A stretch of DNA of 63,932 nucleotides, counting the filler, from Collodictyon triciliatum (Eukaryota): the NCBI GenBank assembly GCA_043381765.1. It is 9 parts of 9 records of this genome, joined end to end, with 100 filler letters (N's around TTAATTAATTAA, not from the genome) between each part and the next. Parts side by side here need not be neighbours in the genome. Positions count along the whole stretch, not along the records: positions 32,380 to 40,368 come from JBHJMP010003639.1; 8 more parts are not named here. One strand, 5' to 3'. Under the pieces are notes generated by a model that was not told the DNA's origin, made no database searches, and saw only the letters and a list, made by a program, of their open reading frames with translations. Every line of letters begins with the position of its first letter. Position 1 is the stretch's first letter. Both the position numbers and the translations under genes were made by a program. This document shows, one piece after another, positions 16,319 through 48,557 of the stretch.

Positions 16319-18982
16319 TATCAAGTTGTCTTACGTATCAGGGGAGTATGGAAAGAAAGAGGATTTTCAAAAACTCAACACTCATATCAAGAAGCTGGTT
16401 GGTAGTGCCAGGGACAATCGCATATTCTATTTGGTAAAAATGCTCTCTGTTTTTATATACATTTAATTTTTATGTGTATGTTTATATTTCTTAATTTTCT
16501 CTTTTTTTTTTTCTCTGGCTTGGTTAACGAACTATAAAATCAGTTTCTTTTTATGATAGACTACGAGCAATTTTTATTTATTCATGTTGGGTACATGAGA
16601 TAGACTCTCGATTTATTGGATGGTTTTCAAAATTGATTTCTTTCAATAGTGATTATATTTTCAGCATAGTAATTGAAATTCAGCCAAATATCCTAAGGAA
16701 ATACATTTTATTGATAATGCAATCTCTCATCTGGTCATAAATATTGGCCAATCTCACTATTTGAGAATGTTTTGATAGAATTTTTAATGCAGGCGATTCC
16801 ACCAAATGTATTCTTGGATGCAGCACGTTGTATACGTGCAGAGTGCGAATCAGAAAACGGATGGTAAATCTGAGCTCATAATCAGTTTTTTAGACGCTTG
16901 AGGCTTTTTTTTTCTAAAATTAAACGTTGTTTTAAATTGCTCTATACCTATATTGTTACACATTCATCCCCTGTGAAGGACCAGAATTGTGGTTGAAAAG
17001 CCATTTGGCCGAGACTTGTTGTCTTCCCAGGATCTAATGAAAGGATTAAGCGAACAATTCCAAGAAAATCAAGTTTACAGAATCGATCATTATCTAGGTT
17101 TCTCCTTGATATATTTGAATTTCAATAAAAAAAAATTCTAAATATATATATATATATCAAAATCTTCATCTCATGTTCACTTGGGTGAAAGTGTAACCGC
17201 GCCATTTTATATTTGCTAACATATAATTACTTTTAAAAAAATAGGGAAGGAACTAGTTCAAGTAATCAAGTTCAAATATCCCTTCATTTATATTTGAATC
17301 GAAAAAAGGGGGAAAAATATTTCATATGGATAAAAGAAGGGAATATAATAAACATTCTAAATATTCAGCCATGTGAGCCAACAAACTTACTTCTATCATT
17401 TGATCTAGAATCTATTTGTCCTCAGGTTTTCAAACTCCATATTTGAGGTAAATGAAATAAATTCATCGTAGTATGACCCTACAATGTACTCTATATTGAA
17501 TTAATCGTGACCGAAAATATTCTAACAAAAAAAACATATCAGCCTCTTTGGAATAACCGCCACATAAGCTGCGTCAAGATTGTTGTATCGGTAAATACAG
17601 AATCCTTACATATCTTTATGAAAAGTCAATTTGGTCGAATGATACCGAAACGATCTAGTGTCCATATATCAATAACGCTATATAATCATCACGAATTGAA
17701 AATATTCCTGAAATAAGCAATTGTACTTCCAGTCTCCCAAAAATATTTTTATTGTTCTAGGAAAATTTTGGGACAGCGGGCAGGGGTGGATATTTTGACC
17801 ACTTTGGCATAATACGTGATGTGATGCAGAATCACATGATTCAAGTAATGAGTCTCGTTGCCATGGAACCTCCTGAAAGTGATGACCCGGACGCAGTCCG
17901 AAATGAAAAGGTTCGAGCCCTACGGTCCACTAAGCCGATTGCTCGAGAAGATATATTGGTTGGCCAGTATGTGGGAAACGGCAAAGATACTGGGTATAAG
18001 GAAGAAGATGGTGTTCCGAGGGACTCTAAGACCCCAACATTCGCCATAGCCCATATACAAATCAATAACGAGAGATGGAAAGGTGTCCCTTTTATTCTCA
18101 AATGCGGAAAAGGCTTGGATAAGAAAAAGGCAGAAGTTCGCATCCAATTCAAACCCCCTAAAGTTAAGGTTCTCTCCCAGGAGCAAGCCCAAAATGAACT
18201 TGTAATTCGTGTTCAACCAGAAGAAGCTATCTACATGAAACTCACCTCGAAGCGCCCAGGAATGAAGATGGAGACTGTCCAAAGTGAATTGGATTTGACC
18301 TATCACGAAAGATTTGGTGGTAAAATACCGACAGCTTACGAAAAACTTATACATGATGTCTACCAAGGAAATCAAAGCTTATTTGGTACAGTTATTCGAA
18401 TTTTTTGGTTCTAATTCATATACATTTTTATATCATGATTGCTATGTGACTTTGTTGGGGTAGTTAATGTAATATATCTCCCTAGTTCGCGAGGACGAAC
18501 TACATGCATCTTGGTTGATATTTGATCAGATATTGAAGGACTTGGAGGAACTGAAAGAGGAGCCCTTACCTTACACGTTTGGCACCCGTGGCCCTGCAGG
18601 AGCAGATGAAATGGCTGAGGCTCTGGGTCATAGATATGACCCAAGTTATAAATGGACAAAGCCCTTGGCACTCTCTCCGACAACCCAACCGTCTCAGACG
18701 AACCCATCACAACCAGGCACTCTGCAACCTTCGATGAAGTCCTTGGGCCCATCAAAATCCACCAAATCACCTTCAGTCATGTATCCTCGCGTATTTGAAA
18801 GAAGCCCTCATAAGAATACTGACAGCTTCGCCGCCCAAAAAGAGCCAGAAAGGAAACCCGCAGTACCCAGCGCCGCAACCAACCCTATACGCCCGGCCCC
18901 AAAACCGCACTCTGTCGCGACAACCACCACAAAAACATCAAAATCCCCGAGTGATGTCCCCAGAACAAAAGCCAAGAAATAA
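16319..18982 (+). CDS. G6PD: Glucose-6-phosphate dehydrogenase, 5' partial
   Basis: Spliced motifs [75 protein letters not shown]. Confidence 0.97.
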
Positions 18983-32279: not shown

Positions 32280-32454
32280 NNNNNNNNNNNNNNNNNNNNN
32301 NNNNNNNNNNNNNNNNNNNNNNNTTAATTAATTAANNNNNNNNNNNNNNNNNNNNNNNNNNNNNNNNNNNNNNNNNNNNGTGGGCTGTAAAATAAAAATT
32401 GAACTGCTCAACTCAGATGCTTATTCAAATAGATGCAGCACATGTTTTGCGGGA

Positions 32455-32554
<100 letters not shown>

Positions 32555-32587
32555 GGATATAGGAATGCCAAGACAAACAGATGCAAC

Positions 32588-35355
32588 CACTGGACTGCTG
32601 GAGGCCTCTTCAACTCTAAATAAGATGAATAAGAGTAATTTTTATGTTTATTAAAAGTATTTAGAACTGTTATCATACAGAGCACCATATTCCTCCAAAT
32701 GTTGAATGTCAGGCTTCGAACAGAATGAGAAAACGTACCTCCTCTTCTTATACTTCAAATCCTTAACGGCAGGGAGTCTGGTAAAAATAAAAAAAAATTA
32801 AAACGGCTTTTAAAAAAAAATGATACTAACATAATGGGTTGTAATACATTCAACCAGAATGTGTTTTGCATCTAATTTCCGATCCACCCGAGCATATAAT
32901 CGAACAAAATTACTTGATTCCTTTCTCGGTTCCAAGAAGATACGGATCTATATTTTTACGACTACGCAGTTGCAGTTTTCGATTCTCTGCAAGATCCTTT
33001 CATAATAGGAGACGATGAGAGGGAGAGGCTGTGCTCGCAGATTACAACATATGCTCTAAAGATGGGATTCATCAACAAGATTGGATACTCACCACAAGAA
33101 AATCATAAGTTACAATTGGAATCTTTTGCTTGAGTGCAAGCTTTGTCTGGTCCGACTTTGATCGCTTCTTAACCTCTTCTTCGATAGTGACAAAGTGCGA
33201 GGTGGTTGGGTCGACTCTATTTGATTACATATATGATTAGACACATTTCAATAAGTATTATGACGAGATTAGAGCTGCGTTAAGTGATTTGTGCATAAAG
33301 AAAAAAATTATCAAACGCACTTTGATTGAAAAGTTCCGCCGTGTGCTTCCACAAATTCCTGAATCTTAGCTCTTGTATACGGCAACTTACCCAGGAATGC
33401 AAATGAGAGACCAAGGAGCTCTTCGCCAGCTGGAACATCCTCCTTATAGATGGTTGGATATTTAGTTATTAAAATATAGTATGTGATTGTAAGAGGTAGA
33501 AAGAGAAGCTGTTCAACATGGTCATATCAGTAAATCTGCATAAGATTGGGTCATATGAGTGACTCACATCCTTTTCTTCGTCGCTCGGTGCATCAGGATC
33601 AAAATCCTAACATAGATGCAAAAGAAATATCTTTACAAAGGAATATTTGTTACATGCAGTGTTTTTGTTATTTTTGATTTTTATTGTGACGATTATTAAT
33701 ATTCCTTTCAATTTGTCCGTAATGGAAGGAAATTGGTAAAAGATATTGTCCATAACTACATCCGAGTTGCATGTAATATGTAATTAATTTTCAGTATACC
33801 AATGTACGCACATCTTACCAGAGACGGTTGCGATTCTCCATCAACGGGTGGGGTTTTCCCCTCTGCAGACTCTGCAGCAGAGGCATCTGGAGTGGAAGCA
33901 GATGCAGATGCAGATGTGGGTGCTCCTCCATCGCCATCTTTGGATACAGATGATAGCGATGGCAACTTCCCGTAAGGAGGTTTCCATGTGCTTAGAAAAG
34001 CATGTCTATTCAAAGATTCTGGAATCGTCCACCTTTTTTAAAGGAAAAATGTACGAGGAATATTTAAAAAAAATTCTTCAGTTGCGAAAAGTAAATTTAA
34101 TAATGCAAAACATAAATTATTTTTTATGATTAAGTAGATTATTATAGAACAGAGTGATGTGGGATTACTGAAATCTCTTTGGTGGTTCCTTTGATTCGTA
34201 ATGGCAACGGACAGCTGGAGAATACCAACCGTAGCAGACGCAAACATCTCCCTATTGATATTTTGAAATAAGTATGGTGACCAAAAATATAGCTGTAAAA
34301 AAAAAAAATTCTCATTTTCTGCGTTTACATTACTATATTTAAATTGTGGCATGAGATTTGAAAAACATTCCTTAATTCGATATAAAAACGAACCTCCCAT
34401 GAAAGCGTGAGGTTTTTGCAATATGGGCAAGGTTCAGTGTTGCCGAAAGCCATGCCCTCTGCACATACATCTAGGATGTCTGGTGGTTTCATGGAATCTT
34501 GATAACGATTATTGGCCTCAACAAGGAGCTTGATTGTCTTTTTGTCCAAGTTTTTTTCAATAATGTTTCGTGTCTCCCATAAGCGGTCCACATATGCTCT
34601 CCTTTCCTTTATGTTCATTCTGATTGAGTCACGATTGTAAAATTTCTAAACGTTAAAACATGTGTATATGGGGAAATGGGTACTATGGCTTTTCTCTTGT
34701 TTTTGTTTTTTGTTTTTTTGGTTTGTTTTTTCGCTAAAATTGGCTTTAGCTTTACCTTGATGCCTGGATCAGTGTCATTTGGCGCAGGCAGTCCCACTTT
34801 GAAGTAAATCTTGAGCTATGGTTTCAAAAAAATAGTTGAAATAGTAACCGTTAAAAAAAAAAGAGACTACAGATGAAAGTGAGCACTTTCTTTAGATAAC
34901 CCAGAAAGTTTACATCTGTAGTAAACTATTATTGCTGTGTTAGTTTGTATATCTGCCTATATGTTAAGAAGCTCCAAACCTGGTCGTCCCAGCGCAAGGT
35001 CTTCCAATATCGTAACTCATCCAGGTTTGTAAGGAAGTAAGCACAGCGCAGGTGATGGTTGTTCTGGACAAAGCCGTCGTGGTACGGAGAGCGCTCATAC
35101 TGAGTTATCCGGACAGTATTTTCCCTTCATGGAGTGAAAACAAAAGTTATTGCCTCACAGGGAAATGGCACATCTTACTCTTTGTGTTTCTTTAGATAAT
35201 CGAAAGTAGAAGAAAAAAAAAGTGAGGGAAAAAAAAAAAAGAAAGAGGAAGTTGACGGGAAAAAAAAACTGTGTCTACGGGATTGATTTTCCGCAGTGCT
35301 TGCACGATGCTCGACTTGTAGGCGCATACGAGGCCTTCGGCTTTGGGATGGACAT
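32588..35355 (-). CDS. PARP1-like protein 5' half: PARP zinc finger, PADR1/Zn3 and BRCT; 3' partial
   Basis: ATG 35355; YAPTSRASCKHCGKSIP, SPYHDG...HHLRC...LRWDDQ, DVCAEGMAFGNTEPCPYC, FAFLGKLPYTRAKIQEFVEAHGG. Confidence 0.85.
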
Positions 35356-38127
35356 TTCGAGCTGCTCTTATCTGCTACAGACACTGTGGTTCAGCAAAGC
35401 ATTGCCTTGAGGAAATTGTTGGTCTTCGTGCTCTCTTTCAGGAAATATACAAGCTGATCCGGCCCAACGGACTGGCCGTACCATCGGCTGCATTTGACTT
35501 GCCACTCAAACAGTTAATACCCTGCTCCGTGGCAGCACTCACAAAGACCCGCGGGGAAATAAAAATCCCTCAACCCCGACAACCCCCACCACGCCACAAA
35601 GCCTATCATAAAGCCAAGCCTTTCGCCGAATTTACAGTGAAAGTGTGCCTCGCTCTTCCTGCGGTTGTCACAGGAGATTCCGCAATAGGTTGGCTTCTTT
35701 CAAACATCCAAACATCCAAACATTTAAAATCGACCTGGTGGTATGCCTTGGTGTAAGTTGCTGTATTTTCACTAATTATGTCAAATATATGTATATCTGC
35801 ATCACATTATTTTATTAATAATCATTTAAAATCAATATTTCACATATAAAATGTATTTTATATTAATTTCCGCATATAGAAATATGATCACTTTCGTTTT
35901 CCTTTCCCTTGTGATCAGATCACAAAACGACGCCGTGAACCCATGGTGGGAGAATAAGTTGGAGGAGGGTGTTGTGGACGGAAAAAACGCGGCAACAGAC
36001 GCACAGACTAAAAGACGCCAAGGACTCTGCCGAATAGCATGAGCGTTGGACTGGGGCGCTCTTTGGGGTTGGGATTCACGGGGACTCCCACAAAGCTCCG
36101 CGAAAACGCTGCTTCCAATGTGCAAGGCAGCCCGCAGATCGGAGCGCAGACCCACGCACACGCAGATAAAAGCACGTATGCTTCGCACCTCCTCCAAACC
36201 ATGTTGCTAGTAGTGGAGCCATATTGAAGAATATTTCTTGTTGGCTCATTTGAAGTACAACTCTGCGGGTGATGTTTCTGTCCCTATTTTATACTCCCCA
36301 ATCCCCTTTTGTCGATGCAGAGAGAGAAAGTAAGAGAAGTTGTATCAGAAGGTGTCATCACCACCGCCGTGAGTAACATCTTCATGGTTCTTGCTTAGGA
36401 ATCGTGGCTTTCGCATTGTGGACGAAACTTTCCGTGATTCCTTTAACTTGCAGAGTCCATATCTGTTTTCCCCCTTGCCGCATCAGGCCTACCAGAGAGG
36501 GCCTTTGGTTGGATTTACATACACAGTTGTCCCCGTTTAACGATGCTAGATTAACCCTGAATTTCTTTCTTCTTCTTTTGCTTCTTCCTTCAAGTAGATA
36601 AATTCCGAGCAACCACACGAGTCATCAGAGAAAGAGAGCTTTGATACTTTCAAGAAGGTGGCAAACCACATATTTTTCTTCCCTTTCATACTCTTTATAT
36701 TTTTTTTTCGTATCACTTTAGATCAATATACTAATTTCCTTTTAAAATTCGATTCACATTAGGATATGGAAAAAAAGTTATCATATCAAGATAGGAACGT
36801 ACTCTCCATTGAATGTGCATACACTAATGATGGGTCTCTTCTTTCTTTCTTTTCTTTATATACAGAAGCATGTAAATCGTATCTAGTTAATAAAATGTTT
36901 CCTTTTTTCTTCTGTATTTTTCCTTTTGCGCATTGTTCCCTCCGAATTCCTTGCAAACTAACTTTTTTTTTTTTCCCTACGGGTATATTTTTGCTTAGGT
37001 GCTCAGATGATGGGAGGAATAGATACGGCCACCATCCGATACTATTACTGTCCAGCCGCTCTGCTCCACTTGCCAGTCACCGCTCTGGAAACATGATTAT
37101 AACTCACCGCTCCACGGCTGGCCAGTCAGCCAGATCGGTGCCGAGCACAAATACCCATGATTAACAAAATAAGTTGGATTTTCCAAATACAAGTACCGCC
37201 ATGGCAACGTAGAAAAGAAAAATGTGGCTACGAATTTTTTTTCTGATGTAGACAAAAGATGGCTCCATGTTAATCTTCTTGTAAATAAAGTGCACAAAAA
37301 AAGAAAAGGAAAAGGAAAGGAAATCGACGATATCATTCTATACATACCAATAAAAGCAGATACTATTCAAGCACTCGAGAAGGGAAGAAATCAGAATAAC
37401 CCTTCACGACACAGGAGCAGGCTGGTGAGTGCACAATCCACATGGTTAAGATTATATGCCCTCTACTTACCACAAAGTAGATACACGGGTCTTGAATAAC
37501 GCGCCTCGGTGGGTCGAATATTTCTTGGTTATTTGGTGGCACATGAGCAATTTTCCCTAATGATTTTATCGCGTGGGTGGTCGCCTTCTGCGATTCAAAG
37601 GAGAGCACCGCCGATTTTTGTTAAAACTGACTACATGTGCGGTTGTTTGCTAAGACCATACCCTTCTAAAAAGCAAATAACAAAAGGTTCTTCATCATGG
37701 GACCAGACACGCACGTCAATTCATGGTTGTTGTTTATCCTCCATCCTTTCTTCCAACCATTTTACAAGACAACCCGCTACAAAATCGTAAGAGAGTGGGG
37801 CAGAGGCACACCCTTGATAAACTGTTCCATACCTTTGTTTCGGATATGAATATTTGTGTTCCACAGGAAAACAAACCACGCCATTATGATTTTTTTTTCT
37901 TTTTATTCACGACAGACTTAGCTGTTGGCGCCCATGCCAACAATCTTTTTTTCAACCACCAAGCAAGTATTCCGAGGTAAAAAAGGGAAAGTGATGGCGG
38001 ATGTGCCATCAGAGGAGTATAGAGATGGGGAAAAGATAAAGGAGAGAAAAGAGGATGAAGAGGAGTAGGAAAGGAAGTAAAGACCCTGGGGCATTTATGG
38101 AATCAAGATACCAGATAGAACAATCCC

Positions 38128-38572
38128 AGATTTTATGAACACGTAACTTTTCGAAAGATGAGATGGAGACAGTATGTTAATACAAAAGGAAGTGAAGAAT
38201 TGTTTATGGGCCGAATCGAAAAGACATTTGGTGAGGATGCTGTACTTGCGTATGGAGACTGGAGCAGAAGATGTCAGATGAAGCATTTTATGCCGTCAAT
38301 CGGAAGAGGGTTACGAAAAATAGTACCCAAACATTTTGAACCGGTTAGTGCAGATGTATTTAGAACCTCCAAGATGTGCTGTAACTGCGAAAAAGAACTG
38401 GAATATATGAAACTGAAAGGAAATACAAAAAATATATAGATGTATCATATGTAAAGAATGAAATCGCTCAAAAAGCAAACAAAGTGTATTCTTGACAAGG
38501 GACTTTAGCAGCACTAATAATATACTCAAGAAAGTTATTTTAATCCTTCAAAATATGCATACAACTCGCTAA
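38128..38572 (+). pseudogene. Decayed Fanzor (eukaryotic TnpB-family RuvC nuclease), C-terminal fragment
   Basis: FYEHVTFRKMRWRQYV...FGEDAVLAYGDWSRRCQMKHFMPSIGRGLRK...DVFRTSKMCCNC, +1 frameshift near 38430, then YRCIICKE*NRSKSKQSVFLTRDFSSTNNIL. Fanzor1-type YG(D/N)WS, DEFxTS-CxxC, CxxC and TRDxNSAxNI motifs; the conserved E of DEFxTS is V and TGA replaces the last Cys. Confidence 0.85.
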
Positions 38573-38580
38573 AAAAAACA

Positions 38581-38699
38581 GGCTGTTGGGTCTTTCCTGG
38601 CAGCCTTCATCACTACACGATCTTTTGTGAAAAAAGTGGTGAGACCTTGGATACTAGCACACCAAGTTTACCAGTCGAAAGATGATATACTCCTTTTAG
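38581..38699 (+). ncRNA. Putative Fanzor omegaRNA scaffold / element right end, copy 1
   Basis: Starts 8 nt after the Fanzor stop; several stems including a GAAA-capped terminal hairpin; ~85% identical (hand alignment) to 56746-56865. Confidence 0.65.
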
Positions 38700-39015
38700 C
38701 GTTTGAATAAAGCACTGAAAGAATGGAAAGATTAATCAAACCTGAGCAAAGACGAAGAATATAGGTATGTGGCAGACACAGGAAAGTTAACAAAGTCTGT
38801 AGAGCCAGAACTGTGCGACGAGAAAAAAAAATACAAGATAGGAGCGATGAAGAGAAAGTTGTGATCTGTGGATACACATCCTTTATCTTGTTCTACTCTA
38901 ATTTTTTTTTCTTTTTTGTTGGCTTTGGTTTTGGTTTTGGTTGTACGTCCGAAGCAACTTTAATCCTTAATGCTGAGACCCGCTGACTGTCGGTAATGTT
39001 CGCTTGGCAGGTAGA

Positions 39016-40368
39016 ATGTGTGACATATTCCGTCTCTGCTTTGGCGGCGATGACGACGAGAACGACGCATCTGCAAAAGAACCGACTGGCCCGAAGAAAG
39101 CGCCGCCACCTTCTGTGGAAATGAGTGAATACTGTATTGGTTGCAAAAAGGGCTTTTCAATCACCGTGCGTCGTCATGAATGCTCCAGCTGGTTAGTTCC
39201 ATTACTCAAAAGAGTCACTATCATATAAAAACTTTTATGTTTTCATGATCTTCTAGCTATTTATTTACTTTTAAATTTCTCATTTTTTTTATTATCTATC
39301 ACCCCTTTATTTGGTTATTTCTCAATATACTTTATTATTTTTCTATTTCTTGTAATGTTTTTTTTGTTTTTTTGTTTTTTTGTTTTTTTGTTTTTTTGTT
39401 TTTGTTTGTTTTTGTTTGTCTTAATCACGTCAAATCAAGGATTACAATATTGTAATTTCTCACAGCAACCGGGTTTATTGTGGAGACTGCATCTCAAGAA
39501 AGCAGGATTCTCTTCCGTGGGATAGCCCGCGAATGTGTATCTCGTGTGAAGAAAGCCAAAAGAAAACATTCAAAGACGATACGCGCATCCGACAATTTGA
39601 AGAGGATTATGCCTCATATCTCAAAACTGGTTTGACTCATGGACGCTTTTATTAAAAGTTGTATAATAAACGACAGAAAACGTGTATACTTCTATATATA
39701 TATATAGTATTCAACATTTTGCAGGTTTATTTTACCCCATGTTGGTATAATGAATTATTTTTTTTCAAAACAAACGAAGGCAAAGATATGACATGTCAAT
39801 AACACCTCCCCGTGTTACCGCAATGCAGGTGTTATATTCAAAAAGCACGGCACCACAGGTTTCCCTCACCGCAGATCTGTGCGGGTCAATGAGCAATACA
39901 GCAAAATCATATGGAGTGACCCGACAGCCGAGGAACAGCCCCGGGACATGGACCTTGCGGATTCAAAGATAGTACGAGGCAAGAGCACCGCAGTCATGAG
40001 AAAGACAGGAAAATGTAAGCCCTCATGGCTCATCTTTATCCACTTCTGAATATATATATATATATTCCTCTCTTTCTTTTTTTTTATAATTTGCATAGCT
40101 ACAAACTAGAGATATTGATGAATCTACATATGCAAAAAAAATAAAAAAATAAAGGAAATTTCATATGTGAAGTTAAACAAAAGGAAATTCACAGCTGTTC
40201 GGGATGAATGCTGCTTCTCAATTGTGGGGACACAGCGCACATTGGATTTGGAGGCAGACAGCGAAGTCCAGCGTGATCGATTCATTACAGCCATGGAAGA
40301 ATGTCTATGGGTTTCAACGGCCATCAAAAAGTCCACAGAGGCCCAGAAAAGAATCAAACAAGTGGAGG
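39016..40368 (+). CDS. FYVE-type zinc finger plus PH-domain protein, 3' partial
   Basis: CIGCKKGFSITVRRHECSSC|NRVYCGDC...RMCISC; PH: FKKHGTTGFPHRRSV...IIW...IVRGKST...CCFSIVGTQRTLDLEA...RDRF. Confidence 0.85.
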
Positions 40369-40468
40369 NNNNNNNNNNNNNNNNNNNNNNNNNNNNNNNN
40401 NNNNNNNNNNNNTTAATTAATTAANNNNNNNNNNNNNNNNNNNNNNNNNNNNNNNNNNNNNNNNNNNN

Positions 40469-40928: not shown

Positions 40929-43900
40929 TTATAAGACCGCACCAGGCTGACTTCTTCTTTTGCCTCCCTTGAATCTATTTTTGGTTCTCCATTCATCGGC
41001 TTTCTGTGCATTTTTTTCCACAACCCACCCGTTTTCATAGCAATCTGCGAGAATAGGGAACACAATCGAGTACTTGTAAAAGACGTCATAGTATTCGATC
41101 TCTTTCCCTGACAATATGCGAGACTCAACATATTCTTCCTTAATGATATCGGCCATTTCTTTCAAAACGTCGAAAGCTTCCTTAGAACCTTGCTGTGCGA
41201 GCTTTCTCAATTTTTCAAAGTTTTCAGCTTTACCGAATAGTCTAATGGCCTTTTTGATATCCTTTTCAACACCCCATCCGTTGGCATAGCATTCAGAAAC
41301 AACGGAAAATGCTTGGGGGTATTTGAGATTTTCATTATCCATGATCTCGGCCGTCTCCTTCAAAATTTTGAACGCCTCCTTTGAGCCTTGCTGAGCAAGA
41401 TTCTTTAGCTTTCCAAACTTTTCGGCTTTACCAAACAGTTTCATGGCATTATCAGGGCTCTTTTCAACGCCCCAGCCATTTTCAATGCATTCAACCATCA
41501 TCTGAGCTTGGAATTTGGTATATCTTTCACCGCCGCAGTATTTCACAAAGTCCTCATCAAAAGAAACGGCACCCTCTTGCAAGAAAAATTGCTTGTTAAA
41601 CTGACTTAGGCCCTTGGCATTCTTGATTCGTATATCACCACCTTTTAGCTTTCTTGGACCAACGATGCGTATTGTCATCAAAATGGCAGTTTTGCTGATT
41701 TCAATCAAATTCATCGCGTCACTCGCTTTGTTGAAAACTGCCAAAATAACATCGGGTCTATCTTTTCTAAAGAGGCAGTTGCTTTTGTTGTACATCAATT
41801 CGGTTTTTTGTAGCTCGTGTATCTGATCCCCAGAGGCCACATCCCAAATCCTCATCGTTCCATCTTCGCCTCCAGATGCTAGCCAATTCTCTCCATTAGG
41901 CCCTTGAATTCCGCATACACTTGTTACTCTGCGACTATGGCATTGCAATACTTTGACCTGGTTGCCAGAGTTTACATCCCAAACGCATACAGTTCTGTCG
42001 CTACTTCCAGATGCTAACCAGCTCTCCCCTTTTGGCCCTTGGACACTACAAATACACGTGACAGCGTTCTTGTGCCCTTCCAGTACCTTGATTTGGTCTC
42101 CTGTTGATAGATCCCAGATGCGAACTGTTTTATCCGTGCTTCCAGATGCCAACCAGTTTTCACCCTTTGGACTTTTGACGCCGCAAACGCCGTTGACTGA
42201 GTTTGTGTGTCCCTCCAGGATGGCTATTTCATTTCCTGTCGCTATATCCCAGATACCAATCGTTTTATCACTACCCCCCGACACCAGCCAATTTTCACCG
42301 TTTGGTCCTTGAATTCCAGAAACATCATTCACGCTGCCAGAGTGGCCCTGCAAGGTTCTTATCTCATTCGCAGTATCCAAATCCCACACACTTATTATTG
42401 TTTTGCTACTGCCTAATGCCATCCATTTCTCTCCATTTCTTCCATTAATGCTGCCTATGCATGTGACAGACTCTGTGCATCCCCCAAATATTTCGACGGG
42501 ACTTTCTGAAGACAGTTCAGAAATTCGTATTGACCTATCCAGGGCTCCAGATATTATCCAGCTCTCACCGTTGGGTCCTCTTGTGCTGCAGAGGCTCTTG
42601 ACGGCAGATGAGTGACCTTCTGTACATATGATTTCGTTCCCAGTATCCAAATCCCAAACGCGGATCACTTTTTCGGCGCTCCCGCCCAACCATCTTTCGC
42701 CATTGGGGCCCTGGATGTTGCAAACAGTTCTGACCCAGTCGGTGTGACCGTGGAAAATCTTAATTTGATTTCCTGTGAAAAGATCCCATGTGCGGAGGGT
42801 TCTATCGCTGCTACCTGATGCCAACCAATTTTCGCCGTTGGGACCTGTAATAGCACAAACCCCGTTGATACCACCGGTATGGCCCTCCAATACTCTGATT
42901 TCTCTCCCCGTGGCTACATCCCAAATTCGAATTGTTTTATCATCACTCCCAGATGCCAGCCAGCTTTCGCCACTAGGTCCCTGAATACTAAATATGCTCA
43001 ATACCCAATTTTTATGGCCCTCTAGGACTCGGAGCTGGACTGCGTTTGATAAGTCCCATATTCGAATTGTATTGTCGTTACTTCCAGAGGCCAGCCAATT
43101 TTCCCCATTCGGTCTTTTAATAAAGCAAACACTTCTAATCCAGTCTCCATGTCCCTCAAATTTCCTAACCTGGTTACCAGTGGCTATATCCCAAACACGT
43201 ACAGTTTTATCATCACTTCCAGAGGCCACCCACTTTTCGCCGTTTGGTCCTTGAAGACTGCAAACGCTGTTTATACCTCCTGTGTGTCCCTCAAACATTC
43301 TGATTTGGGCCCCCGTGGCTATGTCCCACACCCGCACTGTTTTGTCATTGCTTCCAGAGGCCACATAATATTCACCATGAAGACCCTCAGCCGTGCAAAC
43401 ACTGGTGATTGTATTTGTATGGCTCAGCAATGTTTTGAGCTGGTTTCCGGTGGCCAGATCCCAGATACCGATGGTTTTATCATCACATCCAGATACTAAC
43501 CAACTTTCACCATTGGGCCCCTGGATGGCGCAAATATTATTGATACCTCCTTCATGGCCTTCAAAAAGTTTGATTTGATTGCTGGTGGCCAAATCCCAAA
43601 CTCTTATTGTTCTGTCGCCACTCCCTGAAGCCAACCAACTTTCACCATTGGGACCTTGAATTCCATACATGCTGCGTATCCAATCTGTGTGGCCTCTGAG
43701 TAGTTTTATTTGGTTTCCAGAGGTTAGGTCCCAGATTCGAATTGTTCTATCATTGCCTCCAGACGCCAACCAATTTTCCTCATTGGGTCCTTGGACGCTG
43801 CAAACAGCTCTTATCCAGTCTGTGTGTCCATTCAATACCATGACCTGTGATCCAGTGGCAATATTCCAGATTCGAACGGTTTTATCATCGCTGCCTGACG

Positions 43901-46900
43901 CCAACCAGTTCTCACCCTTAGGCCCTTGAATACGGCACACCTCATTCACACCATCTGTATGACCCTCCAAGGTCTTGATTTGCTTTCCAGCAACAACGTC
44001 CCAAATGCGTATTGTTTTATCTTCACTTGCTGATGCCAACCAAGTTTCGCCGTTCGGTCCTTGGACACTACAGATACTGAATATCCAGTTGGTGTGTCCT
44101 TCCAATACTTTAATTTGATCTCCGGTGGTTGAATCCCAGACACGTATTGTTTTATCCTTACTCGCAGATACCAACCATTTTTCACCCTTAGGTCCTTGAA
44201 TACTGCAGATGCTTACGATGGTGGCCTTATGACCGGTCATAACCCTAATGTAGTTTCCGGTGGAGACATTCCATATACGAACCGTATTATCGTTGCTTCC
44301 GGACGCGAGCCAATTCTCTCCATTAGGTCCCTGGATACTACAAACGCAAGCCACCTTGTCCGTGTGTCCCAAAAACAACGGTAGGCGACCGAAATTGACG
44401 TCTTTCATATTTGCGCCGTTAAAGATACAGTTTCCCAGAAAAGTCCCATCGAACAACACACCCTCCAGATTTGCACCGGTGAAGTCTGCACCATCAACAA
44501 CGGATTGAGAGAGATCAGCATTTGGAATCTGGATGCCTCGGAAGTTCATTCCACTGAAGGAGACATCCGCATAATTTAAAATTGTGATGGCATTGGAGGC
44601 TGCTTGTGCCTTGCTTGCATCTGTCTTGGATAGTTCGATAATTGCGAATAGATTGTCTAGGTAGCCCTGATCTCTATTCACTTTTTCGCTGAGATTGATG
44701 AGAATAACAGGCTCCAGTTTTCTATCGAGAGCACCAGTTTTGATAATCTTCGTTTTCACCAAAGACTGGGCACGCTGGGTTCTTTGAGATGTTTTTTGCC
44801 CAGAAGAGTGGTCCAATGAAGTTGACAGCGACAGAGAGGCAACAGCACCTTTTTCGTCCGACGTCTGCCTTTGTTCTTCAGGTTCTGATGCTGTCAGATT
44901 GATTTCATCTTTGATATACTCTGCAGCAAAGAATTCATAGAGGGATTTGTGAAAGAACTCGTATGTTGTCGCACTAGATTTCTTTATGGGTGCGCAGCGC
45001 AGAACAAAGACAGAGTAAGAGGGATCACCATCTGGAAGCTTGTGGTCAGGGTTTGTATTGAAAAATTTGGCATATTCTGGGTTTCTTGACGGTTTGCCCT
45101 CTATTTTTTCATACTCTAACGCCGATATACCATTTTGACACATCTCCTGGGCCATGTCTTTGCATTTATTCCAAAGAAGCTCGTGCAAATCCTCCGGCAT
45201 TCGCTGCTTTAAAGAAAGAGTTAACTCTAGTTTTTCCTTTTCGCGTTCGAACCATGTCCTTGAGAATTTGTCCAAAAAGTCAGTTCTCATCATTTTTGCT
45301 TCTTCCTTGGACTTTGATGGGTCTCCTCGTTCCTTGCATAAAGTAGGAAGTGTGGTAGCCGCCATGAAAATCATAAAAGGAGTGACGGCCAACTCTCGCA
45401 ATTCTTTAATCTTGTTTAATTCTTCCTCGTATCTGGAGCCATTTTCCCACCCCTCCATGGGATTCAACTGGGAGAATTTGTTAAAGTAATCCAACCTTTG
45501 CTTGGGCTCGAATGGTCTCAAATAGATTTCATCCAGAGAATGGCCCTGCTCACCTTTGGGCAGGAATAGTGTTTGATGGTTGGGCTTTCTATCCAAAAAT
45601 TGCTTACGGCACCCAAACACAAACTTGCAGTTGGGCCATTCTTGAAGCTTGTTTGAGACAAAAAATGATGTGTTTTTGTCTTCTATCTCGTCGTAGCCGT
45701 CCAGGAAAAAAACAAAGGACGCCTTCTTCAGCTCCTTAATTTGGTCCTTCCTGAAATCGCAGTCTGGAATGTAAATGCTGTTTTTGCTCTCTGATAAAAG
45801 CAACTCTTCAATTGCATTCTCTCTGGGCTTTTCCAACGAGGTTAAAGAAACATATAATGCAATATATCCTTTCCCGTATTCATACTTTTCCCACAATGAA
45901 CGGACCACGCATTGTTGCAAGAGAGATTTTCCAGAGCCGGAATCTCCAAGTACGAGAAGTACTCTAGCTTTCGACGAAGTTATGAATTTGATAATGTAAT
46001 CCTGAGCATCAAACACTTTTCCTTTCTCTGCAATCCTTTCCGCTTGTCCAGATATGTATGTGCTGAATCGGTTTTTGAATTCTTCATTGCGAACTGTCTC
46101 CTCTTTAATGGTTTCGACTATGTCTTGGATGGTTCTTTCGTCTCTTCCTGCTTTCTCAAAGAGAATAGTAGGTAGGGCCAAGCTCTCTGGTACGAATGCA
46201 GCCATTTCAATCTTCTTTTGCTTCACAAAGAAATCGATCTCTTCGCTTTTTGACCATTTATTGTGGGTAGAGATGAAATTCATCAAATCAAACACCTTAC
46301 GACGCTCTGAACCGGTATAAGTGTACTTGAAGCGCTCATAAATCGAGTCGATAATGAGGAAAGCCAATGTCTCACTGACATTGTCCGATTTTGGCTTAAA
46401 TTGCAAGTCCCAGACCTTGATAGCCTCGTCGATGTTCGCAGATAAGCTGACACGGAAAACCTGATAAAAGGTGAACCAGTTCTTTTTAATTTCAATTTCA
46501 CTGACAGCAGAGACAACCTCTTGTAAAGCTGACAGTGTCCCCAGTATGTCGAAGGAAAAGGCAGCGGATGCAGCATTGAACAGACCAAGACTGACCTTAC
46601 CAGCAATTTTGAGGTTTTTTACTAACGGATTTTGGTCATCCCCAATGTTTTTCAGGAGCTCGCAAAATAGAGACTTTTTGGCTTGTACGTATTTAATTTG
46701 GGCCTTGTTGGCGATGCTCTCTCCACGAGTCTCTATTTTCTTGTCAACCCAGTTTTGACTAAAGGTTTCCATGTATGACTTATATGTTTCCTCGGGGATG
46801 CCAGATGCACCAGAGATATACAACGCATTCAGAATTGCATTCAGACTATCCAGTATTTTTTGGCACAGGGCTTCGTCACTTGAGAAAAGTGTTCCAACAC

Positions 46901-48209
46901 GTTCAATTAAAATATCAACAACTTTGGCCAATAAGGTCTGGTCAAAGTCATCTTTGAGTGTGTTTGTCACAACGACTTGCAGGGCGTTTAGCAGACGGTC
47001 CAATTTTTCCATACCTTTTTGCATTTTGTCGCCGACAGCAGTGATGAGCTTTTCTGATATAAGTTTGTCTCCGGCAGGAGCCAATGCTGTAAGCTCTTTA
47101 AGATTATCCTCGTCTGCGGTGGGCTCCTTCATAAAAAGCTTGATAATACGTATGGCTCTTTTCTTCTCTGAACCAGTTCCACTCTGTTGGTCTCTTTGTT
47201 CGCATATGGTCATAGCAAGGTGCGATGCATTGATTGGTGTCTCCTTGAATTCCAGAATCCCAGACTTCCAATCAGAAAACACAGGGCCAGAGTGAGCCGC
47301 CGATGCTTGACTTTCAGAATAGGGAGCTTGTTGCTGATTAGTCTGGGCAAACGTCACATTTTTTCTCGTTTCGGATCCAGAGGAAGTGGCCATTGGATTT
47401 GTTGCTAGGCCACGGGGAACTCCGGCAGAAACAGTTTCGTGAGGGGATGTCGAAACCGGAGTGGCTAAATTTGATGTGTTCTGCGAGGAGCCTGGCGTAT
47501 TCAATGCCATAGATGAAGTAGCAGGTTGAAGAGGAGACCCATGGTGTGGGCCGGGTGTAAAGTTGGCTTGTGGTATGGTGCCTGCGTGTGTAGGTGAAAA
47601 CATCTGATTAGGAGACATGAACGTAGCTTGTGGTGTACTAGCTCGGACCAACGAGTCAATCACGTAACCATTTTGTTCGGATGGTGGTAATCGAGACACT
47701 TGGTCTATAACACTTTGAATGAATTTCTGCTTGGAATCATTCTGTTCACGGACGTTTTCGGTTTGGATAGAAGCCTGCCTTTCAGCAATCGCAGCTTGCT
47801 TTTCAGCGTAAGAAATATGTAGCGAAATGAGTTTTTCTAAGATTCGAATATCATCTTCCTTTGTAGAACTGTGGAGTAACTGGGATGCTAACACTTGCGT
47901 TAATTGCATGGACATGGCAGCCATGTTGAATCCTGGAGGCGAGCCAGATCCAGCAGCTTCATATGCTTCGTTCATCTTGGACAGGATTTCAAGGATATCA
48001 AGTGGTGTATCCTGGGAGGCATTGGGTGCTCTCCTGGGGGTGGTATTCGTTCGAGACATTCGAGATGATGAATTGCCTCCTCCTCCTCTCAAGACTAGGC
48101 GTACCTGAGGAGTTCCTTCCGTGTTGGGATTAACACTAAAGGATTCAGCATAGAACTTGTCTTTCAGGATGGATGGGTCAATATTCGGGGGGACAATTGT
48201 TCCAGCCAC
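40929..48209 (-). CDS. NLR-like STAND protein: helical N-terminus, NACHT, pentapeptide repeats, 19 WD40 repeats, Sel1-like repeats; true start uncertain
   Basis: 2426-codon uninterrupted frame; Walker A GDSGSGKS, Walker B FFLDGYDEI, TPFM, FFHKSLYEFFAA; pentapeptides ADLSQ/ADFTG/ANLEG; 45-aa GH...WD repeats; C-terminal CYENGWGVEK repeats. Confidence 0.93.
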   Translation of the reverse strand: MAGTIVPPNIDPSILKDKFYAESFSVNPNTEGTPQVRLVLRGGGGNSSSRMSRTNTTPRRAPNASQDTPLDILEILSKMNEAYEAAGSGSPPGFNMAAMSMQLTQVLASQLLHSSTKEDDIRILEKLISLHISYAEKQAAIAERQASIQTENVREQNDSKQKFIQSVIDQVSRLPPSEQNGYVIDSLVRASTPQATFMSPNQMFSPTHAGTIPQANFTPGPHHGSPLQPATSSMALNTPGSSQNTSNLATPVSTSPHETVSAGVPRGLATNPMATSSGSETRKNVTFAQTNQQQAPYSESQASAAHSGPVFSDWKSGILEFKETPINASHLAMTICEQRDQQSGTGSEKKRAIRIIKLFMKEPTADEDNLKELTALAPAGDKLISEKLITAVGDKMQKGMEKLDRLLNALQVVVTNTLKDDFDQTLLAKVVDILIERVGTLFSSDEALCQKILDSLNAILNALYISGASGIPEETYKSYMETFSQNWVDKKIETRGESIANKAQIKYVQAKKSLFCELLKNIGDDQNPLVKNLKIAGKVSLGLFNAASAAFSFDILGTLSALQEVVSAVSEIEIKKNWFTFYQVFRVSLSANIDEAIKVWDLQFKPKSDNVSETLAFLIIDSIYERFKYTYTGSERRKVFDLMNFISTHNKWSKSEEIDFFVKQKKIEMAAFVPESLALPTILFEKAGRDERTIQDIVETIKEETVRNEEFKNRFSTYISGQAERIAEKGKVFDAQDYIIKFITSSKARVLLVLGDSGSGKSLLQQCVVRSLWEKYEYGKGYIALYVSLTSLEKPRENAIEELLLSESKNSIYIPDCDFRKDQIKELKKASFVFFLDGYDEIEDKNTSFFVSNKLQEWPNCKFVFGCRKQFLDRKPNHQTLFLPKGEQGHSLDEIYLRPFEPKQRLDYFNKFSQLNPMEGWENGSRYEEELNKIKELRELAVTPFMIFMAATTLPTLCKERGDPSKSKEEAKMMRTDFLDKFSRTWFEREKEKLELTLSLKQRMPEDLHELLWNKCKDMAQEMCQNGISALEYEKIEGKPSRNPEYAKFFNTNPDHKLPDGDPSYSVFVLRCAPIKKSSATTYEFFHKSLYEFFAAEYIKDEINLTASEPEEQRQTSDEKGAVASLSLSTSLDHSSGQKTSQRTQRAQSLVKTKIIKTGALDRKLEPVILINLSEKVNRDQGYLDNLFAIIELSKTDASKAQAASNAITILNYADVSFSGMNFRGIQIPNADLSQSVVDGADFTGANLEGVLFDGTFLGNCIFNGANMKDVNFGRLPLFLGHTDKVACVCSIQGPNGENWLASGSNDNTVRIWNVSTGNYIRVMTGHKATIVSICSIQGPKGEKWLVSASKDKTIRVWDSTTGDQIKVLEGHTNWIFSICSVQGPNGETWLASASEDKTIRIWDVVAGKQIKTLEGHTDGVNEVCRIQGPKGENWLASGSDDKTVRIWNIATGSQVMVLNGHTDWIRAVCSVQGPNEENWLASGGNDRTIRIWDLTSGNQIKLLRGHTDWIRSMYGIQGPNGESWLASGSGDRTIRVWDLATSNQIKLFEGHEGGINNICAIQGPNGESWLVSGCDDKTIGIWDLATGNQLKTLLSHTNTITSVCTAEGLHGEYYVASGSNDKTVRVWDIATGAQIRMFEGHTGGINSVCSLQGPNGEKWVASGSDDKTVRVWDIATGNQVRKFEGHGDWIRSVCFIKRPNGENWLASGSNDNTIRIWDLSNAVQLRVLEGHKNWVLSIFSIQGPSGESWLASGSDDKTIRIWDVATGREIRVLEGHTGGINGVCAITGPNGENWLASGSSDRTLRTWDLFTGNQIKIFHGHTDWVRTVCNIQGPNGERWLGGSAEKVIRVWDLDTGNEIICTEGHSSAVKSLCSTRGPNGESWIISGALDRSIRISELSSESPVEIFGGCTESVTCIGSINGRNGEKWMALGSSKTIISVWDLDTANEIRTLQGHSGSVNDVSGIQGPNGENWLVSGGSDKTIGIWDIATGNEIAILEGHTNSVNGVCGVKSPKGENWLASGSTDKTVRIWDLSTGDQIKVLEGHKNAVTCICSVQGPKGESWLASGSSDRTVCVWDVNSGNQVKVLQCHSRRVTSVCGIQGPNGENWLASGGEDGTMRIWDVASGDQIHELQKTELMYNKSNCLFRKDRPDVILAVFNKASDAMNLIEISKTAILMTIRIVGPRKLKGGDIRIKNAKGLSQFNKQFFLQEGAVSFDEDFVKYCGGERYTKFQAQMMVECIENGWGVEKSPDNAMKLFGKAEKFGKLKNLAQQGSKEAFKILKETAEIMDNENLKYPQAFSVVSECYANGWGVEKDIKKAIRLFGKAENFEKLRKLAQQGSKEAFDVLKEMADIIKEEYVESRILSGKEIEYYDVFYKYSIVFPILADCYENGWVVEKNAQKADEWRTKNRFKGGKRRSQPGAVL

Positions 48210-48557
48210 ACATCCACACTCGTATTTCTCAGGTGTAGGCGGTTGGGTGTCTTTTTTTTTTTTTGTTTCAATTTTTTTTAAAAAGAAAAAAAAGGAATTG
48301 TGTTTGCGTCAGTTAAATTATTTTTTAAAAAAATAAAGTTCTTGTTTGTTATATATAAGCGAAATAAAAAAATCACTGTGATGATAAGAGGATAAATTGG
48401 CCATTGTTAATAGTAGTGGTTTTTTTTTTTAAAAAAAAAAAAAGGGAATTAGGGGGNNNNNNNNNNNNNNNNNNNNNNNNNNNNNNNNNNNNNNNNNNNN
48501 TTAATTAATTAANNNNNNNNNNNNNNNNNNNNNNNNNNNNNNNNNNNNNNNNNNNNT

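Follow-up and report, generated by a model that had tools for sequence, protein, structure and literature searches.

A truncated and mutated Fanzor1 relic with a probable RNA scaffold in the genome of Collodictyon triciliatum

The coding relic

The DNA analysed here, referred to below as the window, is a stretch of 63,932 nucleotides from Collodictyon triciliatum (NCBI GenBank assembly GCA_043381765.1), made up of nine parts joined by filler letters, in which positions 32,380 to 40,368 come from record JBHJMP010003639.1. What the plus strand encodes at 38103-38635, in broken form, is the rear quarter of a Fanzor1 gene, the C-terminal ~170 residues of the RNA-guided nuclease. The region of ~38096-38717 on the same strand is likely to be the right-hand end of a cut-and-paste transposon that carried Fanzor1, truncated at its 5' side and mutated.

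The initial annotation of this DNA had described a two-frame relic of a Fanzor gene, and all the peptide motifs that it quoted were found in their places by reading of positions 37000-39600 and of all stop-to-stop frames and by a codon script check. Frame 1 (38119-38436) holds FRKMRWRQ, YGDWS (38251-38265), KHFMPSIGRGLRK and DVFRTSKMCCNC; the sequence DVFRTSKMC lies at 38353-38379. Frame 2 holds CIICKE followed by a stop codon TGA (38459-38461), and the sequence TRDFSSTNNIL from 38495. Two frames are indeed occupied, but a piece in the third frame, SRYQIE at 38103-38120, had been overlooked.

The frame-1 fragment was compared with the protein chains of solved structures. Similarity was found to the Fanzor1 of Parasitella parasitica (PDB code 9cf0, E 2.6e-11), the Fanzor of Spizellomyces punctatus (8gkh, E 1.9e-6) and the Fanzor1 of Guillardia theta (9cer, E 0.019), which upholds the identity proposed from the motifs. 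In a large protein collection, 7 of 37 candidate proteins matched at E<=1e-3, and the closest, both metagenomic, are P0001 (223 amino acid residues, 67%) and P0002 (648 residues, 65%). P0002 itself aligns to the three solved Fanzor1 proteins (E 2e-28 to 4e-23) over the N-terminal and RuvC parts, with the RuvC-I motif DPGK and the catalytic Glu included, up to the start of the zinc finger. Intact relatives of the subfamily to which the relic belongs therefore exist. The Pfam family PF07282 gave E 0.11 with full-length P0002 and E 0.0089 with P0003, both below its cut-off.

When six relatives were compared with the window by tblastn, residues 479-581 of P0002 fell on 38128-38436 and residues 579-642 on 38426-38617, and no further match in the window lay below E 0.8. 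Since only residues 479-642 are covered, the ~470 N-terminal residues are missing; residues 1-470 of P0002 gave no tblastn match anywhere in the 64-kb window. At the other end of the chain, a tail beginning KKQAVG from 38573 is common to P0001 and P0002, and in the register of P0002 the reading frame would end near 38635.

The catalytic residues were compared in an alignment of six proteins (A1), where Glu555, Gly521, the Cys residues and the Arg-Asp pair are invariant. In Fanzors, the canonical RuvC-II Glu is described as replaced by Gly or Pro, with an alternative Glu used downstream (Jiang et al. 2023, PMC10530073), and the conserved residues G500 and E536 are reported for Fanzor1 (Bao and Jurka 2013, PMC3627910). 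In the relic this rearranged RuvC-II is incomplete: the Gly is kept within YGDWS, but the alternative Glu, which belongs to the sequence NEFRTSK and is invariant in A1, is changed to Val (codon GTA at 38356-38358). The replacement of Glu by Val therefore fits a relic and not a working member. The C-terminal motif [TS][TS]-x-x-C4 zinc ribbon-x(5,50)-RD is present as TSKMCCNC ... CIIC ... TRD, split by a frameshift and the TGA. A single reading frame holding the RuvC-I Asp together with the N-terminal WED and REC parts was not found, there being two frameshifts and two stops in the relic.

The copy had been called dead on account of one frameshift, one nonsense codon and the Glu-to-Val change. 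All three are real, and the damage goes further: a second frameshift (38121-38130), a second stop codon TAA (38570-38572) and the loss of the N-terminal ~470 residues had escaped notice. Being 5'-truncated, the copy is far more broken than had been stated, and it cannot produce a nuclease.

A multi-copy family in metagenome contigs

Sixteen sequencing runs were listed for the stretch, of which 14 are labelled freshwater metagenomes. Ten of the 16 contain a small share of it (best 0.17) and none contains the whole. Contigs from four runs were compared at 80% likeness; these contigs are not assignable to an organism. In the set designated X1, 70 short contigs with 80-99% identity cover only positions 38093-38712 (4 contigs at 99% or above, 16 at 95-99%, 25 at 90-95% and 25 below 90%). 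Before 38096, where the window diverges, the X1 contigs continue the Fanzor reading frame. At the right side no depth is left past the bin 38682-38712, and one contig parts from the window after 38699. The depth and the points of divergence therefore indicate a multi-copy family with a right end near 38700-38717, and a window copy truncated near 38096. The suggestion that this lineage has a Fanzor family of its own can be kept as far as the multi-copy family is concerned, but the family is seen only in the metagenome contigs.

At position 38461 all seven covering X1 contigs have C, which gives Cys in place of the TGA. Position 38571 is T or C in the contigs and position 38572 is T, which gives Phe or Ser in place of the TAA. 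One X4 contig (38632-38782, with 5 differences) spans the junction between the segment described below and its flank, and an X2 contig extends to 38742. As these contigs cross the junction, a close relative must have the same relic in the same place.

The structured segment

According to the initial annotation, a structured segment of ~120 nt follows directly after the relic. A structured segment is present; however, it starts inside the ancestral tail of the reading frame and not behind the gene, and its 3' end probably lies ~20 nt beyond the end first proposed, at about 38717. Stem 1, GGCUGUUGGG/CCUGGCAGCC, pairs 38581-38590 with 38596-38605, and the predicted fold lengthens it to 11 bp (38580-38590 with 38596-38606). 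Stem 2, UUCAUCACU/AGUGGUGAG, pairs 38606-38614 with 38635-38643, and inside it are the hairpin of 38616-38620 with 38625-38629 and an A-rich bulge at 38630-38635 (38630-38637 is unpaired in the model described below). The hairpin capped by GAAA (38674-38683) exists as well, but has merely three pairs. The putative pseudoknot of GGUCU with AGACC is complementary on paper and competes with two helices. The fold of the plus strand has -35.0 kcal/mol and z -2.21, a value equalled by 4 of 200 shuffled sequences, and that of the minus strand has z +0.32, equalled by 123 of 200. By itself, the plus-strand fold is just modestly beyond chance.

Related loci were found by pattern scans, 50 of them in metagenome contigs and 10 in viral ones; several of the 50 are the same contigs as those of the viral collection, so that the locus counts are not independent. 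Over the best aligned segment these loci have 27-60% identity, and full-length loci have 41-47%. Their conserved DNA begins ~60 nt past the RuvC-III motif and extends to a right-hand repeat, where similarity ends abruptly. In relatives of 41-60% identity, which are mostly on giant-virus contigs, it contains an element of ~150-200 nt which lies behind RuvC-III irrespective of where the reading frame stops, the distance from the start of the element to the stop codon ranging between ~10 and ~186 nt. The element terminates in an inverted repeat of 31 nt.

An alignment of this element (A2, by MAFFT) was made from 25 of 35 distinct 3' regions. Left out were L010 and L016, which run off the end of their contigs, L026, L038 and L045, which are near-duplicates of retained rows, and L031, L033, L040, L044 and L047, which are divergent or badly aligned. 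Five helix regions were drawn by eye on A2 and then tested for pairing. H0 is an 11-bp hairpin that occurs in one subgroup of the relatives only, P1 encloses the hairpin P2 and an A-rich bulge on its 3' side, and H4 and H5 lie further 3'. In the alignment, 83.6% of the cells are paired, compared with 35.5-47.2% when the partners are slid, and the covariation score of 0.371 (0.059-0.081 with slid partners) was reached by none of 500 shuffles. RNAalifold predicted only 7 pairs on the MAFFT alignment. Helix H5, near the right repeat, was 47.1% paired; it was judged unsupported and omitted from the model.

The covariance model R1, built from these 25 relatives, has 160 positions and 24 pairs, and its E-values are rough owing to a shortened calibration. 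On the plus strand behind the gene it detects the element in 32 of 43 related loci, with 56-166 bits, and in 18 loci it detects the left repeat on the other strand. The segment was expected to be linked to Fanzor genes elsewhere, and it is: besides these 32 loci with the covarying element in the same place, the X1 contigs connect the RuvC-III region with the segment. Another pairing was noticed among the relatives (L001-L060), in which a near-invariant UUUUAC behind P1 is complementary to GUAAAA at the very right end of the element. It could form a long-range closing helix beside the guide, although the columns concerned barely vary.

In the window, the best match of R1 is 38576-38722 on the plus strand, with 16.9 bits (filters off, 17 matches on both strands); its E-value is 0.1 for the whole window and 0.0019 for the local 1.2 kb of 38000-39200. 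All 20 pairs of H0, P1 and P2 are canonical in this alignment, the A-rich bulge is in register with the AAAGU bulge of the family, and the aligned helices coincide with the stems first proposed, stem 1 being H0, stem 2 P1 and the inner hairpin P2. A second match at 1654-1778, with 14.4 bits, was rejected because most of its helices are broken or their pairs non-canonical.

Only the protein relic might be real, the segment then being a decayed coding tail and 3' flank whose fold and weak model match arose by chance. This would agree with a fold z of only -2.21, a window-wide E of 0.1 next to a 14.4-bit chance match elsewhere, the lack of nucleotide similarity to the relatives at this place, and the result of an Rfam search, which gave two far sub-threshold matches only, both outside the segment. 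However, the best match in ~128 kb of searched strand falls at the predicted place and on the predicted strand, directly behind RuvC-III, with every pair of three helices canonical and the bulge in register; the 14.4-bit match has broken helices, and the X1 paralog family extends through the segment and stops near 38712. We regard a chance origin as unlikely. The segment is more than chance because it matches the covariance model of the relatives, and it is probably homologous to their RNA scaffold.

Among the listed X1 variants there are four changes in the helices of the model. Three of them (at 38587, 38610 and 38619) turn a G.U pair into a Watson-Crick pair and one, at 38616, breaks a pair; the remaining listed changes within 38616-38637 are located in loops or in the bulge.

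The transposon of the relatives

In the related loci the 31-mer of the right end has an inverted copy upstream of the gene in 27 of the 40 loci that possess the right-end motif, and these inverted repeats bound elements of 0.8-5.5 kb. An upstream open reading frame in the elements is a DDE_3 transposase with a helix-turn-helix domain (E 1.4e-13). The element ends read TA-CACC...GGTG-TA, which is consistent with a Tc1/mariner-type element, the TA duplication being inseparable from the repeat itself. From these relatives with terminal inverted repeats of ~31 nt we infer that the transposon of the relic is of the Tc1/mariner (IS630-like) type. An association of Fanzor1 with Mariner/Tc1 transposons is published (PMC3627910; for Fanzor1c, PMC10530073).

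Several points weigh against reading the locus as the right-hand end of such a transposon. The R1 score of 16.9 bits is weak beside those of the relatives, and the match is missed under default filters; since the score is so far below that of the family, the homology of the scaffold is probable and not proven. A blastn comparison of 38100-38900 with the 60 loci gave no nucleotide similarity beyond ~38503, and a Pfam search of the relic fragments gave no family at E<=10. The position of the right end, 38697-38717, is approximate because the match is poor in the 3' third of the scaffold, where H4 and the terminal motif lie, and covariation within the subfamily rests on the listed variants of the metagenome contigs only. 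Terminal inverted repeats at both ends are not seen, the window having only the weak match at the right: a search of the window for an inverted copy of 38699-38717, with up to 3 mismatches allowed, found no left repeat. A transposase is likewise absent from the window (best tblastn E 0.33), and a target-site duplication cannot be shown as the left end is missing. Because the left repeat, the transposase and the duplication are all lacking in the window, the mariner-type membership comes from relatives at no more than 60% identity. The absence of the transposase is no argument against a Tc1/mariner origin, since non-autonomous copies are usual.

Alternatively, the relic could be a viral remnant, brought in by an integrated fragment of a giant virus with no transposition in this lineage. 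All 10 loci of the viral collection are on giant-virus contigs, contigs which recur among the 50 metagenome loci as noted above, and several 'cellular' Fanzor1 elements were deemed virus-borne by Bao and Jurka (PMC3627910). However, the neighbouring genes in the window are of cellular type and include a glucose-6-phosphate dehydrogenase exon (E 1.1e-79), a kinase, a leucine-rich repeat protein and a reading frame of 2459 residues. No second Fanzor or transposase piece was found elsewhere in the 64-kb window, in which no search was aimed at viral hallmark genes. The many diverged copies in X1 are as expected of a resident repeat family, and the relic's subfamily, with its 65-67% to P0001 and P0002, is distinct from the viral loci (<=60%). 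A viral origin is improbable, and the relic is most likely an inert fossil of the transposon located between cellular genes.

Two kinds of elements were observed among the relatives in addition. Those at L045:2797-3619, L060:4518-5340, L040:186-1090 and L039:1090-2261 are internally deleted mariner-Fanzor1 derivatives of 823-1172 nt, in which the inverted repeats of both ends, a stump of the Fanzor C-terminus and the complete RNA scaffold are retained; these ghost-like, non-autonomous elements occur on metagenome and giant-virus contigs. Some elements of 4.7-5.5 kb have an extra cargo reading frame between the transposase and Fanzor1, as in L019:2475-4892 and L022:3225-4877, both on the minus strand. 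The cargo proteins are one of 805 residues without a Pfam match and one of 550 residues with a DUF4379 treble-clef zinc finger and a C2H2 finger.

Features and surroundings of the locus

The coordinates of the relic, the scaffold and the probable right end are collected in Table 1.

Table 1. Positions of the Fanzor1 relic, its lesions and the adjoining RNA-type segment in the window
Feature	Position	Strand	Basis or remark
Truncation point at the 5' side	about 38093-38100	+	reading frame of the X1 contigs goes on upstream of 38096, the point of divergence of the window
Fanzor1 relic, piece A, frame 3, SRYQIE	38103-38120	+	equivalent to P0002 residues ~471-476
Frameshift 1	38121-38130	+	10 nt against 3 codons in relatives
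Piece B, frame 1: FRKMRWRQ, YGDWS, DVFRTSKMCCNC, first half of zinc ribbon	38131-38436	+	PDB Fanzor1 E 2.6e-11; P0002 479-581, 65%
Gly at the old RuvC-II position, in YGDWS	within piece B, 38131-38436	+	invariant Gly521 in alignment A1
Piece C, frame 2: second CxxC, RuvC-III TRDFSSTNNIL	38426-38572	+	alignment to P0002 579-642
Frameshift 2, in a run of A	around 38427-38433	+	between pieces B and C
Stop TGA	38459-38461	+	Cys in relatives
Stop TAA	38570-38572	+	Phe in relatives
Ancestral C-terminal tail KKQAVG..., overlapping the 5' part of the RNA scaffold	38573-38635	+	P0002 579-642 on 38426-38617, end of P0002 6 residues on
Helix H0, 11-bp hairpin with 5-nt loop	38580-38606	+	fold; aligned to H0 of R1 with no non-canonical pair
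Helix P1, 38607-38611 with 38638-38642, extendable to 9 bp	38607-38642	+	R1 alignment; the same layout covaries in relatives
Hairpin P2, inside P1	38616-38619 with 38626-38629	+	R1 alignment
3' stretch unpaired in the model, A-rich part 38630-38635	38630-38637	+	R1 alignment
Diverged 3' part of the scaffold	38646-38683	+	fold and comparison with A2; not aligned by R1
5-bp hairpin	38646-38650 with 38662-38666	+	fold
Motif UUUACC	38667-38672	+	near-invariant UUUUAC in relatives; UUUAAC in 1 of 25 rows
3-bp GAAA hairpin	38674-38683	+	occupies the place of helix H4 of relatives
Right terminal inverted repeat remnant and right end of the element, probable	38697-38717	+	aligned to the 3' terminal motif of R1; end of X1 depth

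To the left of the relic, the purine-rich sequence 38000-38092 is also present in the X1 and X2 contigs, and one X2 contig departs from the window after 38092. In an empty-site test, a 16-nt piece of the loose end of the X2 contig behind 38092 had no match in the window. The stretch may be another repeat, a low-complexity purine-rich sequence or the breakpoint of a rearrangement. To the right, at 38977-39655 on the plus strand, are two Cys-rich pieces of open reading frame, CIGCKKGF...RRHEC and ...VYCGDCIS...CISCEE, which are ~250 nt apart with T-rich repeats (TTTTTTTG)n at 39358-39420 between them; this region resembles an intron-containing zinc-finger gene. At ~40365-40465 a run of N adjoins a long (GA)n/(TC)n microsatellite. 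The frame of 2459 residues is uninterrupted (40929-48308, minus strand), and by eye it has many WD40-like repeats (...GH...WD...) behind a P-loop-type motif GDSGSGKS. The glucose-6-phosphate dehydrogenase sequence is a C-terminal exon at 17761-18414 on the plus strand, whose closest relatives in the large protein collection reach at most 61% identity; judged by this gene, the host lineage lacks a close named relative in that collection.

Comparison with known systems and possible function

The Mariner/Tc1 Fanzor1 transposons described as PGv-1 and PUl-1/PUl-4 (PMC3627910) agree with the relic in the set of C-terminal motifs and in the Gly and Glu positions that are specific to Fanzor1. The relatives of the relic share with them inverted repeats of ~31 nt, ends consistent with TA and a DDE_3 transposase. 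However, the relic copy itself differs in having no left repeat or transposase and a doubtful right repeat. Its subfamily is known only from metagenomic proteins (65-67%), and it is by description that it is likened to PGv-1.

The solved nucleases SpuFz1 (8gkh), PpFz1 (9cf0) and GtFz1 (9cer) are similar to the relic over the RuvC-II and zinc-ribbon region (PMC10432273, PMC11423790). Their scaffolds, as described there, lie at the 3' end of the open reading frame, abut the right end and consist of few stem-loops, an arrangement that the probable scaffold of the relic would share, and the published Fz1 scaffolds vary widely beyond the first stem-loop. In contrast to these, the relic is not a working gene, and its probable scaffold of ~140 nt (H0, P1/P2 and 3' hairpins) is defined by comparative analysis alone.

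Cutting guided by an omegaRNA is reported for other Fanzor1 proteins (PMC10432273, PMC11423790, PMC10530073), and the mechanism proposed for the family of the relic is taken over from them by analogy. In an intact element, the 3' region of the Fanzor1 mRNA, which overlaps the tail of the reading frame and extends to the right inverted repeat, would fold into the omegaRNA scaffold. The guide would come from the flank immediately past the right end, and the complex of nuclease and RNA would cut matching DNA.

A published parallel to a scaffold without its gene is found in Spizellomyces punctatus, where the 'ghost' Spu-1 and partial Fanzor loci retain the omegaRNA right end without a working nuclease gene (PMC10432273), as the relic probably does. 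These ghost loci are described with both inverted repeats, as conserved and multi-copy, and with demonstrated guide activity, the omegaRNAs of loci without a Fanzor gene supporting cleavage by SpuFz1 in human-cell assays (PMC10432273). The relic does not have this make-up: it has no left repeat, and a coding stump of 500 nt is retained.

A trans-acting use of this kind is a possible, unsupported one for the relic. Its transcript would be loaded in trans by an intact Fanzor1 of the same subfamily, encoded elsewhere in the genome, and would target the sequence after ~38717. In addition to the Spizellomyces precedent, this could be favoured by the full pairing of H0, P1 and P2 in the window, by the three of four listed stem changes among paralogs that strengthen pairs, by the close relative that keeps the same relic across the scaffold-flank junction, and by the sense codons of X1 at both stop positions, which suggest that less damaged copies exist. 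However, transcription of the relic is unsupported, no RNA run being among the listed holders, and the 3' part of the scaffold, beside the guide, is its least conserved part in the window. The 500 nt of decaying coding sequence are as expected under neutral decay, and retention in a relative diverged by ~3% is expected without selection. We consider a guide function of the relic very unlikely, and equally doubtful is the fuller scenario of an unsequenced freshwater protist lineage with a live multi-copy Fanzor1 of the P0002 type, in which the relic is kept as a trans-acting guide locus.

Conclusions

What is demonstrated is a dead Fanzor1 stump truncated at the 5' side, a covarying RNA-type element in the corresponding place of its relatives, a weak but fully paired match to this element at the right position in the window and a right boundary near 38700-38717 common to the family. 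The relic retains the last ~170 codons and a diverged but recognisable scaffold, consisting of helices H0, P1 and P2 with the A-rich bulge. The left end, the catalytic Glu and the REC, WED and RuvC-I parts are gone, and what remains is interrupted by two frameshifts and two stops. The relic is an ordinary fossil of a known sort of jumping gene, and relics of such design are published and recurrent.

If the relic did serve as a guide locus, it would direct the nuclease of its family to the sequence to the right of ~38717. The covariation-supported scaffold (H0, P1/P2 and H4) and the right-end repeat, described here for a mariner-borne group of Fanzor1, aid in spotting orphan right ends. The intact P0002 of 648 residues and the freshwater multi-copy family are minable candidates for new compact RNA-guided nucleases. 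Finally, the relic places in a cellular-type eukaryotic genome a Fanzor1 subfamily that is otherwise known here from metagenomic proteins alone.

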